Positions 51,001-57,000 of a stretch of DNA of 64,000 bases are shown one piece after another. Source of the stretch: Candidatus Omnitrophota bacterium. GTDB taxonomy: Bacteria > Omnitrophota > Gorgyraeia > Zapsychrales > Fredricksoniimonadaceae. The stretch lies in the NCBI GenBank assembly GCA_903908245.1, contig CAIVRE010000024.1:9676-73675 (forward strand), read 5' to 3'. Position numbers: made by a program. Numbering within the stretch: position 1 is the stretch's first letter; the number at the start of each line of letters is the position of its first letter.

Positions 51001-54000
51001 GGCGGTTGGGGGGATGGCGGCGCGGTCATTACCAATGATGACAAGATCAAGCATATGGTCGAGATGTTGCGGGATTATGGCCGCATCGACCGGTATTGCC
51101 ATAAGATGAAGGGTTTTAATTCCCGTCTTGATACCATGCAGGCGGTGGTGTTGTCGGCCAAGCTCAAGCATCTTGATGAGTGGAACCGGATGCGCCAGGC
51201 GATCGCTGCGGTGTATGCCGTGGAATTGGCCAGGATCGGCGTGGCTGTCCCGAAGACAGCGCCTGACCGTGACCATGTGTATCAGACATACGCGATCCGT
51301 GTTAAAGATCGCGCAAAGGTGATGGAAGGCCTGAAGGCGAAGGGGATCCCGTCGCTGATCCATTATCCTATTCCCATCCATTTGCAGGAAGCGTATAAGG
51401 ATGCGGGGTATAAGGCCGGGGATTTCCCGGTTTCGGAGAAGATCGCCGCGGAGATCCTGTCGCTCCCGTTGTTCCCGCATATGACCGCGGACCAGGTTAA
51501 AGAAGTCGTAGGCGCATTGAAAGAATCGTTATGATGAAGGTCTCCGTCGTTATCATCGCCCGCAATGAAGAAGATAACATGGACGATTGCCTTTCCAGCG
51601 TCAAAGGCTGGGCGGACGAGATCGTGGTGGTGGATGACCGTTCGACGGACAAAACCGTTGAGATCTCGAAGAAATATGGCGCTACGGTTTATCACCGCCA
51701 GATGGACAACGAAGGCATTCATCGCAACTGGGCGGCGGCGCAGGCGAAGAACGACTGGGTGCTGTATCTGGATGCCGACGAGCGGGTGACCCCCGAGCTT
51801 CAGAAAGAGATCGATGTTGTCTTGCCAACGACCGCCCATGTGGCCTTTGCCATTCCGTTCCGTACATTCATCGGGACCTATTGGGTGAACCATTCGGGCT
51901 GGTATCCTGGCCCCAAGACCCGCCTGGTGCGTAAAAGCAAATTCAAATATGAAGAGGTCCCGGTCCATCCGCGTGTTTTCCACGACGGGACCTGCGGGCT
52001 GTTGACCAAAGACATCATTCATTACGGGTATCCTGATCTGGAGCATTTTTTGGGCAGTTTGAACCGTCAGACCACGCTGGAAGCCCAGAAGTGGGTGACG
52101 GACAAGCGCAGCATGCCCATGATCAAGGGGCTTTATCGCGCGGTCGACCGTTTTTTCCGTTCGTATATCGGCAAGGGCGGCTGGAAGGGCGGGTTCATGG
52201 GTTTCGTGATCGCCTTCTTCGCGTCGCTGTACCAGATCATGAGTTACATAAAGTATTACGAAATCAAAAGAAAGACGTAGGGGCGGTTCATGAACCGCCC
52301 TTGCGAGGGATGATTGGCTATGAAAGTCGTTTTCCTCGACCGCGACGGCGTTATCAATGAATTCCCTGGCAACGGGTTGTATGTGACCAAGGTCAGCGGG
52401 TTCCATTTTCTTCCGCGTACGTTAAAGGCTTTGAAGCTGCTGACCGACGCCGGGTATCATATTTTTGTGATCTCGAATCAGGCGGGTGTCGGCAAAGGGG
52501 TCTTTTCCAAAGACAAACTCGACAAGATCACCGCGCATATGCTCAAAGGCGTGAAGGCGGCGGGGGCCAGGATCGACGATGTCTTTTATTGCACCTGCAA
52601 GTCTTCCGCCGGATGCCATTGCCGCAAGCCCAGGATCGGGAATATCATCAAGGCGCTTAAAGGCATCGATAAGCCCCTTGATGCCGCCAGGCATGCTTAT
52701 TTTGTGGGTGATACCGAAGGGGATATCAAGACGGGCAAGAATGCCGGGTGCAAGACCATTTTCACCCTCTCGGGCCGTGAAGACCAGGAGTACATGAACC
52801 GTTGGGATGTCCGTCCTGACCATACTGTGGAGGACCTTTATGACGCCGTTGCCATCATCCTCAAAGAAGATCCTTATCCTTCACGCGAACGCGGGCGCCG
52901 GGCATCGCAAGGCAGCGGAAGCGGTCTTTAACGGCCTCAAGGCGCGCGGTTACGCGAACGCGTCGATCGCGGATGCCCTCGAACACACCAATCCTTTTTT
53001 CAAGAAAGCTTATCCTGCCGGCTACGAGTTCATGGTCGGGAAACTCCCAAAATTATGGGCGACATTCTTTGAAGTGACCGACAAGGATTGGGCCCAGCCT
53101 GCTTTTCAGGGCGTGCGCCGGGTTTACAATGGCCTTAATTCAATGCCTCTGGTCAAGCTGGTGAAAGAGGGGGAATACGATACCATTGTGACCGCGCATT
53201 TTCTTTCCACCGAAGTTGTCGGTGACTTGCGTGCTTCGGGCCAGCTTCCGGATACCCGCCTTGTGACGATCGTGACCGATTATGATGTGCATAAGATCTG
53301 GTTCTCCAAAGGCGTGGACCTGTATCTGGTGGCGTCGGACTACACCAAGCGCCGGCTGGCGGCCATCGGTGTTCCGCAGGACAGGATCGCGGTCACCGGT
53401 ATCCCGCTGGATGAGAAATTCACGGTTGTCCGCGACCGGGCCACGTTGTGCCGGAAAATGGGCCTGAAAGAGGGGGCCTTCACGGTCCTTTTATCGACGA
53501 GCTCATTCGGGTTCGGCCCTATCGAGGAGCTGGCGGACCTGCTCAGGGATCAGCAGCTGATCATTATTACAGGGAATAATAAAGCATTGTTGGCGCGCTT
53601 GATGGCCAAGGGGAATCCGTTGCATAAGGCTTATGGGTTTGTGGATAATATGGAAGAATTGATGGCGGTTGCGGATGTGATGCTCACCAAGCCCGGCGGG
53701 CTATCGATCACCGAGGCACTGGCCAACGGCCTGCCGCTTATTTTCTTCAGTGCCATTCCGGGTCAGGAAGCGGGGAATGTGAAAGTCCTGGCGCAGCACG
53801 GGGTGGGTTTAAGCGACAAGTCTTTATCCGAGATCGGCGCCGAGATCAGGGCGTTCGCATCCACCCCGGCCAAGCTTGCAGCCGCGCGTGCCGCGTCCAG
53901 CGCCCTCGCCCGCCCGCATTCTGTCGAGGATATTATAAAACATTTGTAATATGACAATCGCCCATGTAGTTTTCCCTGTCCCTGTAGACAATCATTTCGA

Positions 54001-57000
54001 CTATCTCGTCCCTGAAGATCGGATCGGACGGGCCCTGGTGGGGTGCAGGGTCCAGGCGGTGTTTGCCCGCAAGAAAAGCGTGGGGGTGGTCGTCGGCCTG
54101 GCGGAACATTCGGATTACAAGGATCTGATCACGATCATTAAGGTCCTTGATGATGTGCCGGTCTTTTCGGCCGCCATGCTGGATTTTGCCAGGGCGTTCG
54201 CGGGACATAATGCCTGTTCGTTCGGCGAGGCCCTGTCCATGGGCCTGCCGGCGTATCTGCGCAAGGCCGGTTCTCGAAAGAAGGCTGCCGGGGGTTGGCC
54301 GTCGGATGGCCAGGGGCTTCCGGAAAAACTGCCTGTCAGGAACGATCTCATTTTCGACCCTTCTTTTGATAAACGCTGGGATATCCTTCTGCCCCGGATG
54401 CGCGCGGAATTGGCGGCTGGCCGAAGCGTTCTGGTGCTGGTGCCGGAAAGTTCGTATCTGGAAGAAGTCTTGCCTCATATCGGGCCTTTGGCCGGGCCTG
54501 ACGGGCGGGTTTTGCTGCGCCAGGATACCGAGAAAGAAGAATATGCCCGCTGGCTCAAGGTCCGCTCGGGAGACGTCAAGCTTGCCGTGGGGTTCCTGTC
54601 GGCGGTTTTTGCGCCGGTCCAGGCATTGGGTCTTATTGTTGTGATCGATGAAGAAAGCCGATTTTATAAAAATGACCAGACCCCGTTCTATCACGCGCGG
54701 GAGGCCGCGTTCCTGCGTGCCGAGAAAGAAAATGCGTCGGTTGTCTGTGTGTCGAGCGCGCCGTCCGTCGAACTTTGGCGTGAGGTGGCTGAGGGCAGGG
54801 TGGCCCTTGAAAAGGCCGACGCGCCGTTGCCATCGGTCCGGTTCCTGGATATTTCAAATTTCAAGATGAAGAAAGGCAGCCTTCTTTCGCCGGGGCTTCG
54901 CCTGCATCTTGAGAAAGTATTGAAAGAAGGCGGGAAAGCACTGTTGTATGTCCCGGCGGCCAAGGGCGTCGGTTATGTGCTCGAGGAGATCGGAAAGTAT
55001 ATGCCTCAAGCCCGGGCGGCGGGGTATGACCAATCGTCCGTGGCCAGGCCCGATGTTGATATCCTGGTGGCGACCCAGGCGATCTTTCGTTTTCGCGGAC
55101 GGGTGACCTATGATTTCGCGGCGGCACTGGATATCGATTATGAATTCCATAAAGCCGACCATCGCGCGGGCCACGCGGCTTTTGCCCTGGTGCAGTATTT
55201 GCGGCAGATGGCGCGCAAGTCCGTGCTGCTGCAGACCCGTGAACCGCGCAGCCCCCAGTTGCATGCGATCGCCGATGACGGTCATGAGAAGTTCTACACC
55301 CAGGAGCTGGCGGCGCGGGAGGAAATGGGCTTTCCTCCGTTCGGGGTCTTTGCGGCACTGGTCATCCGTTCGGCCGACCCTGAACTTGCTTGCGCAGAGA
55401 GTAAAAGGCTTTATGATATATTCGTTGCCGCCGGTCATGCCGGGGTTAATGTGATGGAACCCGCGCAGGACCGGGCGGCTATTGTGCGCGGGAAGTTCCG
55501 CTGGCGCGTGATGCTGCAGGGCCAGGACCGCATGGCGGTTGTCGCCGCAGCCCGTGCGACAGCGTTGAAGTTCCACGGCAAGAAAGACACTATCTTAACG
55601 GTGAATATCGACCCATGAGAATCGTTTTTTTCGGTTGTGATGATTTTGCGGCGGTGAGCCTCAAGCGGCTTGTTGATGACGGCCATACCCTGGCGGCTTT
55701 GGTCACCCAGCCGGACAAGCCTCAGGGCCGTGGATTGCATGTTGCGTATTCCGCTACCAAAGAACTTGCGCTCCGGTTGTCTCTGGATGTTTTTCAGCCG
55801 GTGGAATTGAAAGATGAGGTGGTTACGGCGCGGTTAAGGGGTTATAACGCCGATGTTTTTGTGGTGGTGGCCTATGGCAAGTTTCTTCCGCCGGAGGTCC
55901 TGGGTATCCCGAAGTATTTTTGCGTGAATGTTCATCCGTCGCTGCTCCCTCGATATCGCGGCGCGGCGCCTGTTAACTGGGCGGTCATTAACGGTGATAC
56001 CCGGACGGGGATCACCTTGATCAGGATGAATGCCTCCATGGATGGCGGCGATATCCTGGCGCAGGAAGAGTATCCGTTACCCGAAGACATTTCATCTTCC
56101 TCTTTGCGGGAACAACTGGCGGTGTCCGGCGCGAATATGCTCGCGGAACTTCTGCCGCGTATCCCTGCCGGGGAATTTCATTGCCGGAAACAGGACAGTT
56201 CACTGGCGACCCGCGCGCCGAAGCTGCATAAAGAGCTGGGGCATATTCAGTGGACGGATGCCGCGAAGAAGATCCACGACCTGGTGCGCGGGACGCAGCC
56301 CTGGCCCGGGGCATATACTTTTCTTAAAGGGGATCTTTTGAAGGTCCTGGACGCCGCGCCATGCGATGCCGCGGCTTCGGGTGTCGCTGGCGAGATCGTT
56401 GAGCTTCACAAGGACGGTTTTTGTGTCCAGGCCGGCGACCGGGCGGTGCTGGTCAGGCGTGTTCATCCGGCGGGCGGGAAAGCCATGGATGCCCGCAGTT
56501 TTTTGGCCGGGCATAAATTAACGCTGGGAGAGAGGCTGGGGAGTCCCTGATGATGAACAAGGCGGGTTTGATCGTTAAAGTCCTGTGCAGTGTTGTGCTG
56601 ATCGTGATCGCGGCGCAGCTTCTGGCGTACCATTACAGGTTCATTGTTTATCCTTTTCCCAATGAATACCGGGAAGGGGCGATGTTGACCACGACGTCCG
56701 GGCTGGTCCACGGGGTGAACCCCTTTGAACTGAACAATCAGCCGCAGTACATGAACGATTACGGTATTTTTTATTCCATTGTGACGTATCCGTTCGCGAA
56801 AGTTTTTGGCGTGACCATGCTGGTGCACCGGCTGGTGACCGCGTTCTTTATTTTTGCGTGCGGCGGGCTGATGTTCTGGGTCATGCGGCGGCTCAAGACG
56901 GACCTTTTGTTGGCGGCGGTCGGTGTTGTTATTTTTTACGCGTGCTGTTTATACCCCGGGACAACCACGCCGATGGCGAATCCGTCGTCCCTGGGTTTGT

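Follow-up and report, generated by a model that had tools for sequence, protein, structure and literature searches.

The window analysed here, 64,000 nucleotides in full, is positions 9,676 to 73,675 of contig CAIVRE010000024.1 (assembly GCA_903908245.1) from a Candidatus Omnitrophota bacterium. On its plus strand, at 53951..55618, it carries a gene of 555 amino acids (aa) plus stop with an ATG start, which lies directly upstream of fmt in the priA-fmt position described in the original prediction. The product is a homologue of the replication restart protein PriA (primosomal protein N') in which the ATPase motifs have degenerated, and it is called pseudo-PriA below. The ATG of pseudo-priA is found 1 nt past the stop codon of an MGDG-synthase-like glycosyltransferase gene (52807..53949, +). 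Its TGA stop codon overlaps the ATG of fmt, which encodes methionyl-tRNA formyltransferase (55615..56550, +; PF00551 and PF02911), in the form of ATGA, and fmt, the downstream neighbour, is translationally coupled to pseudo-priA. Both flanking genes are conserved and serve as synteny anchors.

The homology of this protein to PriA is far above chance. Pfam PriA_3primeBD (PF17764) matches residues 6-100 with 68.5 bits (cutoff 22.7) and PriA_C (PF18074) matches residues 463-555 with 34.4 bits (cutoff 26.9), and the same scan of the 555-aa protein gave no match to DEAD (PF00270), Helicase_C (PF00271) or Zn_ribbon_PriA (PF18319). A phmmer search against the PDB returned the PriAs of Klebsiella pneumoniae and Escherichia coli as the best solved relatives (E = 1e-40), in three collinear stretches. 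The NCBIfam PriA equivalogs all match far under their cutoffs (best 207 bits vs 921), and TIGR00595 falls short of its own (181.5 vs 230.35). Because the equivalog cutoffs are missed, the relatives of this protein are named 'hypothetical protein' by the NCBI pipeline, while JGI names them primosomal protein N', and surveys of PriA presence or absence by NCBI names would wrongly score these genomes as being without PriA. Compared with the 732-aa E. coli PriA, the protein is 177 aa shorter, in agreement with the predicted shortage of about 180 aa.

The E. coli PriA sequence was taken from NC_000913.3 and aligned with the window protein and its relatives, and the fate of each domain and motif was read from this alignment. 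The 3'-DNA-binding domain (3'BD; residues 1-104, 53951..54262, +) is present according to both PF17764 and the residue map. In E. coli PriA, a pocket of this domain formed by Asp17, Tyr18, Gly37 and Lys61 holds the nascent leading strand's 3' end (PMC5778457). D17 and Y18 of this pocket are kept, together with F16, which is also identical to E. coli, while E. coli Gly37 corresponds to A39 and Lys61 to I60; D17 and Y18 are found in 100% of the class of relatives that, like the window protein, lack the zinc-binding cysteine-rich region (CRR) of PriA (the CRR-less class). The alignment with PriA had been predicted to run along the whole length, including a winged helix. This stood for the 3'BD, motif Ia, Walker B region and C-terminal domain (CTD), but not for the winged helix: residues ~107-200 of E. 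coli PriA, comprising the winged helix and the LxxEQ segment ahead of Walker A, have no counterpart, and where an E. coli-type winged-helix domain and the Q-motif-like LTxEQ segment would be expected there is a variable linker of 26 aa (residues 105-130, 54263..54340, +) with pLDDT of 73-77, no secondary structure and conservation of 0.23-0.26.

The first RecA-like lobe (residues ~131-292, an approximate boundary; 54341..54826, +) keeps its fold in the AlphaFold2 model and the Foldseek comparison. The loss of the P-loop is borne out by the alignment, in which the GVTGSGKTE of E. coli is matched to a degenerate Walker A, DPSFDKRWD (residues 136-144, 54356..54382, +). All three glycines are gone, K230 is replaced by R142 and T231 by W143, and R142 and W143 are fixed in 89% and 96%, respectively, of the CRR-less class. 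Motif Ia, VLVLVPE (residues 160-166, 54428..54448, +), is conserved, with P165 in 100%. The Walker B remnant (residues 233-236, 54647..54658, +) reads DEES instead of the canonical DEEH, so that the His is lost as the original prediction had it, and E234 is near-invariant in every class; the quoted string VVIDEES...FYHAREAA, within which it lies, is located at residues 229-253. The aromatic-rich loop has changed from YKQQEGWRYHAR in E. coli to YKNDQTPFYHAR (residues 239-250, 54665..54700, +), with Y239, K240, Y247, H248 and R250 kept and W333/R334 of E. coli replaced by P245/F246. P245, Y247, H248 and R250 of this wedge loop are found in about 90-100% of the CRR-less class. Motif III is degenerate, with VSSAP (54749..54763, +) in place of GSATP.

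The fold of the second RecA-like lobe (residues ~293-445, approximate; 54827..55285, +) is also kept. It contains the clade-specific motif NFKMKKG (residues 303-309, 54857..54877, +; N303, F304 and K305 in 100, 85 and 87% of the CRR-less class), which was not found in canonical PriA, and a deletion scar, YVP/AAKG (residues 333-339, 54947..54967, +). Motif IV (NRRGF) and the whole zinc module of eight cysteines (Cys4-Cys4), together about 60 aa, have been cleanly removed from between P335 and A336 of the scar. This corresponds to the predicted deletion of the CxxC...CxxC insertion; the 555-aa protein has no CxxC pair, and a CRR of the PF18319 type, with two zinc ions and four CxxC pairs, is absent. 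A further 12-aa segment is deleted directly upstream of motif V, which is itself degenerate (VATQAIFRFR, residues 373-382, 55067..55096, +; canonical IGTQMxAKGxxF): IGTQMLAKG has become VATQAIFRF, and T375 and Q376 are kept. It is followed by the clade-conserved block DIDYEFHKADHRA (residues 394-406, 55130..55168, +), the most conserved stretch of the short class, and by a degenerate motif VI, QYLRQMARK (55193..55219, +; canonical QVAGRAGR), in which QVAGRAGRAGKQG has become YLRQMARK with a deletion of 5-7 aa and the arginine-finger motif is gone. The CTD (residues 463-555, 55337..55615, +; PF18074) closes the protein, and the last of the strings quoted in the original prediction, ELAAREEMGFPPFG, lies at residues 452-465. 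All these strings are thus in place, and the losses go further than was originally noticed, since the LTxEQ segment and all of motifs III to VI are affected as well. Where the ATPase motifs of superfamily 2 helicases are expected, the protein reads DPSFDKRW, DEES, SSA and YLRQMARK, and ATPase and helicase activities are most likely absent. On the other hand, the conservation of the 3'BD pocket, motif Ia and the aromatic-rich loop suggests that fork binding may be kept.

These losses belong to a real gene. When four canonical PriAs and E. coli PriA were compared with the window by tblastn, high-scoring segment pairs were obtained in a single frame only, and the segment pairs flanking the position of the CRR are separated by just 12 nt (54953-54964). 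A P-loop or CRR hidden by a frameshift was rejected on these grounds; no corrected frame restores either of them. The identical 555-aa protein is encoded on nine independently assembled contigs from several samples and assemblers, and the degenerate form is shared by related genomes: a protein search gave 43 relatives of 546-566 aa with 40-82% identity and the same pattern, and the short form is present in 18 metagenome-assembled genomes (MAGs), one genome per species, all of which are Omnitrophota by label or synteny. Most of the named relatives of the short class are labelled Candidatus Omnitrophota or Omnitrophica. The nine contigs and the 18 species genomes rule out an assembly error. The ratio of nonsynonymous to synonymous substitutions (dN/dS), an approximate value here, is 0.08-0.14 against the three closest orthologues and equals those of fmt and the MGDG-synthase gene. 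Conservation in the short class is even across both lobes (0.6-0.83) and is low only in the linker. AlphaFold2 with an alignment of 88 sequences gave a model with pLDDT of 94.4 and pTM of 0.93, in which the linker is the sole weak stretch. In the Foldseek search, PriA chains took ranks 1-9, with E. coli PriA bound to a fork and PriB (8fak_H) at TMq of 0.86 and an engineered PriA lacking the winged helix (6dcr) at 0.82, and Mfd, RecQ and RecG followed with less than 0.5. The overall PriA fold of 3'BD, two RecA-like lobes and CTD is thus predicted to be kept. Because it is under purifying selection and has a confidently predicted PriA-like fold, pseudo-PriA is a working protein. An assembly artefact or a decaying pseudogene, to which the name 'hypothetical protein' and the scores far under the PriA equivalog cutoffs might point, can practically be dismissed, since the reading frame is intact in about 50 relatives with identities of 40-82%, and the single frame, the nine contigs, the predicted fold and the low dN/dS all refute it.

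Pseudo-PriA is not isolated in its phylum. In 18 of the 18 species loci, the genes follow the order DegT-GT2-HAD(gmhB)-MGDG-priA-fmt. A second class of relatives, about 615 aa in length, retains NRRGF and the four CxxC pairs (e.g. P0060, P0064 and P0044) but is without Walker A, in whose place x-R-W is often read, and without motif VI, the 12 aa ahead of motif V and the Q-like segment. These proteins are 32-38% identical to the window protein, a Lys is found at the position of E. coli K61 in 75% of them, and P0060 and P0064 are encoded in the same gene order as in the window. A search from P0248, a transitional form, yielded in turn many canonical PriAs of about 666 aa annotated as primosomal protein N' and labelled Candidatus Omnitrophota or Omnitrophica, which lack the winged helix and keep GITASGKTE, DEEH, GSATP, NRRGF, eight cysteines, GTQMIAKG and QVAGRAGR. 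Three of three canonical genes inspected, P0393 (in the closed 1.43-Mb genome CP070780.1), P0352 and P0363, lie between the MGDG-synthase gene and fmt. Because the HAD-MGDG-(UDG)-priA-fmt locus, where UDG stands for a uracil-DNA glycosylase gene, is common to them, the active, ATPase-dead, and ATPase-dead and CRR-less proteins are orthologues at one locus in different Omnitrophota lineages. The order priA-def-fmt was seen in another phylum.

The distribution of these states shows in what order the parts were lost. Walker A and motif VI are both missing from 70 of the 70 nearest relatives and both present in all 50 further matches. In a profile search of 1.84 billion cluster representatives, the states of the top 150 were tallied as dead with CRR (110), dead without CRR (16), mixed (6) and canonical (18), so that the dead form with CRR is the commoner one (110 vs 16). 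Walker A and motif VI are absent from at least about 180 sequence clusters, of which some 50 have lost the zinc module too. In a neighbour-joining (NJ) tree built on the columns outside the CRR, the window protein falls in a pure CRR-less clade of 44 members, nested in a clade of 177 members, all of which are without Walker A and motif VI. The sisters of this fully dead clade are P0248 and P0279, proteins of 670-678 aa with an intact Walker A (GVGGSGKT and GVSGSGKT) and a CRR, in which motif VI is lost (QLTNIAQRS and QIIEHASHD) and motifs II, III and V are eroding. These states form a stepwise series of loss in place, from the active protein through loss of motif VI and an ATPase-dead form with CRR to the CRR-less form. 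Since the active 666-aa Omnitrophota PriAs are already without a winged helix, this domain was missing from the active ancestor, and its absence is older than the ATPase loss. The winged helix is not universal in PriA: there is none in active PriAs of about 665-680 aa from Omnitrophota or of the spirochaete type. Nine CRR-less pseudo-PriAs (P0068, P0172, P0190, P0191, P0201, P0205, P0220, P0224 and P0235) are placed outside the 44-member clade, and some of them keep NRKG or a short remnant of the CRR. Because they lie elsewhere in the tree, their placement suggests that the zinc module was lost more than once after ATPase death. At long range (loci L008-L021 against the window), pseudo-PriA is 45-53% identical, compared with 58-71% for fmt, 58-71% for the MGDG synthase and 68-79% for DegT. 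Pseudo-PriA thus diverges faster than its neighbours at long range, whereas among close relatives its dN/dS is equal to theirs.

Some properties of E. coli PriA are relevant to what such a protein could do. A loop of helicase lobe 1 acts as a wedge at the fork junction (PMC10175261, PMC5778457), the CTD touches the leading arm and the winged helix touches the parental duplex (PMC10175261). The CRR, lobe 2 and the CTD form a pore around the single-stranded DNA (ssDNA) of the lagging strand and expose a docking surface for PriB (PMC10175261), and R427 and R428 of motif IV bind ssDNA in this pore (PMC13594977). The K230R mutant has no ATPase and still supports restart via the PriA-PriB pathway (PMC5778457, PMC13594977). 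Whether PriA works on its own in bacteria without PriB, PriC, DnaT or DnaD is listed among the open questions (PMC5778457).

We consider it likely that pseudo-PriA is a compact pseudohelicase, a priA orthologue in its place that recognizes forks and recruits DnaB, the replicative helicase, independently of ATP. What is directly observed is the homology, the orthology by synteny, the motif losses and their order, the purifying selection and a confident PriA-like model; the absence of ATPase and helicase, the fork binding and the DnaB recruitment would follow by analogy with E. coli priA300 (K230R) and Deinococcus radiodurans PriA. In one Omnitrophota lineage, an active PriA helicase of about 666 aa without winged helix would have been converted into this form. 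The 3'BD and the CTD have been kept, and so have both RecA-like lobes, which would form a rigid scaffold; of the ssDNA track, motif Ia remains together with the wedge loop rich in aromatic residues and the TQ belonging to motif V. Every element that binds or hydrolyses ATP (the Q-like segment, motifs I, III and VI and the His of DEEH) has been lost, and so have motif IV and the zinc-binding CRR. Because the elements for the 3' end, the junction and the leading arm are kept and the motor, pore and PriB dock are lost, the protein would serve as an ATP-independent platform on forks. It would bind abandoned forks and D-loops without ATP via the nascent leading strand's 3' end, the fork junction and the leading arm, and would then bring DnaB to the lagging-strand template, either directly or via a loader or adaptor. 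A duplex lagging arm would not be unwound by pseudo-PriA, which probably cannot clear such an arm alone, and the CRR pore and PriB docking step of E. coli would not be used. R142/W143, NFKMKKG and DIDYEFHK are candidates for locking of the lobes or binding of partners. The original prediction had envisaged a scaffold-type PriA orthologue without ATPase, and synteny, motif losses, selection and predicted fold speak for it, with its activities set by analogy.

Several points weigh against this view. Two of the four residues of the 3'-end pocket differ in pseudo-PriA (G37 to A, K61 to I/N). A CRR-less PriA has no tested precedent, and E. coli needs the CRR for PriB docking and for restart in vivo (PMC10175261, PMC13594977). 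A second active PriA or a compensating helicase may exist beyond the 64 kb inspected. As to the methods, dS is saturated (>1), which makes the dN/dS values approximate, the NJ tree is crude and carries no support values, and the alignment used for AlphaFold2 took in canonical PriAs, which may favour a PriA fold.

Part of this also bears on whether the PriA fold has been turned to another purpose. Pseudo-PriA might have no role in restart, its 3'BD and new surface motifs serving another DNA transaction or unrelated partners. Such a relic would account for the motifs conserved in the clade and absent from canonical PriA (R142-W143, NFKMKKG at 303-309 and DIDYEFHKxDHRA at 394-406), for the loss of the pocket residue K61 and for the loss of the CRR, which is required for assembly of the E. 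coli primosome. The gene also lies inside an envelope-glycan island without other replication genes, and its identity to canonical Omnitrophota PriA is 26-27%, not above that to E. coli PriA (25%), which points to fast divergence after the loss. However, the locus and the coupling to fmt are those of the ancestral priA, D17, Y18 and the wedge loop are strictly constrained, and loss of the helicase is compatible with restart in both E. coli and Deinococcus. Only one PriA is present at each inspected locus, so that this protein is the sole candidate seen if restart still needs PriA. We regard the change of purpose as unlikely.

Somewhat more doubtful still is that a second, full-length and active PriA elsewhere in the genome performs restart and leaves this copy free to degenerate. 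Canonical PriAs labelled Candidatus Omnitrophota or Omnitrophica do exist, and the inspection covered 64 kb of the present genome and, for each relative, a surrounding stretch of about 20 kb. Within these limits, neither the 64-kb window nor any of 30 fetched loci (~20 kb each) showed a second priA, the number of PriA-like regions being one per locus. The canonical Omnitrophota PriAs share the MGDG-priA-fmt locus, which makes them orthologues in other lineages and not products of a second locus, and it is the degenerate form that occupies the ancestral locus; because the locus is shared, a simple paralogue scenario is unlikely. The assemblies in which canonical forms were seen (GCA_020346285.1 and GCA_018817165.1) and those seen with degenerate forms (GCA_964612665.1, GCA_964450385.1 and the 18 MAGs) do not overlap, and a dN/dS of ~0.1 across more than 50% sequence divergence is unlike a redundant copy. 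It is very improbable that the protein is still an NTPase through a non-canonical site, for example one made of R142, D233 and E234. The acidic pair D233 and E234 and an Arg at the position of the P-loop Lys are conserved, and E. coli PriA may, according to one proposal, bind nucleotide at a second, weaker site as well (PMC5778457). Nevertheless, all three P-loop glycines are replaced, the Mg-binding Thr has become Trp, and the Q-like segment, motif III and the arginines of motif VI are gone. K230R alone abolishes the ATPase of E. coli PriA (PMC5778457), and the same Lys-to-Arg change is named for the inactive PriAs of Deinococcus-Thermus (PMC4504706).

The compact pseudohelicase that we favour has its closest likeness in the latter group. 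In D. radiodurans PriA, ATPase and helicase activities are absent, whereas binding to ssDNA, to forks and to DnaB is retained (Lopper et al., 2015; PMC4504706), and Deinococcus-Thermus PriA is the only described exception to the conservation of the PriA helicase motifs (PMC5778457). Both are natural PriA orthologues with degenerate Walker A and B (in the window protein, DEES for DEEH) and an Arg at the position of the P-loop Lys (R142 here), and in both a lineage presumably gave up the ATPase and helicase of PriA and yet kept the protein. Going by the published description of the Deinococcus-Thermus proteins, however, poor matches are limited there to motifs I and II (PMC4504706), whereas the window protein has in addition lost the glycines of its P-loop, the Q-like segment, every motif from III to VI and the whole CRR. 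The activities were measured in Deinococcus, while the window protein is known from its sequence and predicted fold, and the Omnitrophota case differs also in its graded series of intermediates. The Omnitrophota loss, of the same kind and outside that clade, is to all appearance independent, because the active PriAs nearest to it come from Omnitrophota, a different phylum, and occupy the same locus. The ATPase-dead PriA from which the original prediction derived an unusual restart mechanism has, as such, the Deinococcus precedent (PMC4504706); pseudo-PriA is much more reduced than that protein.

With the canonical PriAs of E. coli and K. pneumoniae (4NL4, 6DGD and 8FAK), pseudo-PriA shares the 3'BD, two RecA-like lobes and CTD in the same order, as well as D17, Y18, motif Ia, some of the aromatic-rich loop and the TQ in motif V. 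In contrast to E. coli PriA, to which it is about 25% identical, it has no winged helix, functional ATPase motifs, motif IV or CRR, and because the CRR is absent it would have neither a pore encircling ssDNA nor a docking surface for PriB. The canonical Omnitrophota PriA of ~666 aa is its direct active counterpart, with the same locus, phylum and architecture without winged helix, and differs in its intact motifs and in a family-4 UDG gene directly upstream. The 615-aa Omnitrophota form has the same locus and the same losses of ATPase motifs and differs by keeping motif IV and the CRR. Among laboratory variants, priA300 (K230R) of E. coli resembles pseudo-PriA in having no ATPase and is proficient in restart via PriA-PriB, and the PriA without winged helix (6DCR; TMq 0.82) is among its best structural matches. 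These are, however, single-feature variants that need the CRR and PriB, whereas the window protein joins both defects with loss of the CRR, and does so naturally. A literature search on PriA or the primosome in Omnitrophota or Omnitrophica returned nothing relevant.

Some observations were made beside these. Four loci of three labelled groups have the family-4 UDG gene (PF03167) directly upstream of a canonical priA, two from Omnitrophota, one from Poribacteria and one spirochaete-like (L029:9313-10017, L030:9324-9992, L026:4101-4994 and L027:3989-5008). No family-4 UDG was found in the window or within about 10 kb at any pseudo-PriA locus, where the MGDG-synthase gene abuts priA; this could reflect co-loss or relocation of a repair partner. 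Three loci with a short pseudo-PriA and Omnitrophota synteny, L014 (JAAYZZ010000007.1), L020 (CAZXSE010000002.1) and L022, are labelled 'Elusimicrobia bacterium' or 'uncultured Planctomycetales bacterium' and are probably mislabelled MAGs. In L022 (CAYTIW010000048.1), the priA match is split, with one piece at 6166-6474 and the other at 6719-7690, perhaps through a disruption or a local gap in the assembly. Upstream of pseudo-priA, the longest ORFs of gmhB (HAD family; 52314-52931, +) and of the MGDG-synthase gene (52807-53949) overlap by 125 nt, and the true start of the latter is probably further downstream (the public call is 369 aa). A minus-strand ORF of 133 aa (52422-52823), called as a gene in one public assembly and without a Pfam match, lies inside the gmhB-like gene and is probably spurious.

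Nearly the whole window is an island of envelope and polysaccharide biosynthesis that encloses priA-fmt. Throughout positions 1-64000 the GC skew is positive, and about 50 of the 57 long ORFs are on the plus strand. The island encodes seven radical-SAM enzymes (three with a B12-binding domain and one with SPASM), three DegT aminotransferases and glycosyltransferases of GT1, GT2, GT4 and GT9, as well as at least five methyltransferases, a carbamoyltransferase, Wzy_C, LptD and PMT_2. Among the scanned ORFs with a Pfam match, which belong to envelope, polysaccharide, transport, signalling and other metabolism, no other replication gene was found, and there is no tRNA gene and no Rfam family at the gathering threshold in the 64 kb. 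Tandem genes of the UDP-glucose/GDP-mannose dehydrogenase family lie at 21872-23275 and 23238-24569; the first, assigned on the strength of a sequence motif alone, probably starts near 21950. A tandem pair of GGDEF diguanylate cyclases, of which one has a GAF domain, is encoded at 16429-17727 and 17712-18731. Three copies of the 14-nt direct repeat ATTTTGAACAGGCG, 79-100% identical and spaced by 81 and 21 nt, are found at 32779-32894 in the 0.7-kb gap between the ORFs 31252-32466 and 33180-34178; they have no Rfam match and may be a regulatory site or chance.

With regard to the biology of this phylum, we suggest more tentatively, as something that may well turn out otherwise, that in a large Omnitrophota lineage replication is restarted by a PriA cut down to its core. 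This core would comprise the 3'BD, the CTD and a pair of dead RecA lobes that carry the wedge loop, and it would need no ATP, winged helix or zinc module. Access to DnaB would then avoid the CRR pore and the docking of PriB/DnaT, a step regarded as central in E. coli, and might depend on surface motifs that have become fixed in the clade (R-W where the P-loop was, NFKMKKG and DIDYEFHK). If so, the graded series at one locus would be a natural deletion experiment that defines the minimal task of PriA. To the one natural exception described so far to the conserved PriA helicase motifs, the pseudo-PriAs add another that is independent and far more radical, all of them derived from an active orthologue at the same locus. 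They indicate on which parts selection persists without the motor, namely the pocket for the 3' end, the CTD, the wedge loop and the scaffold formed by the lobes. They are also ready-made constructs with which to test helicase reloading independent of ATP and the CRR.

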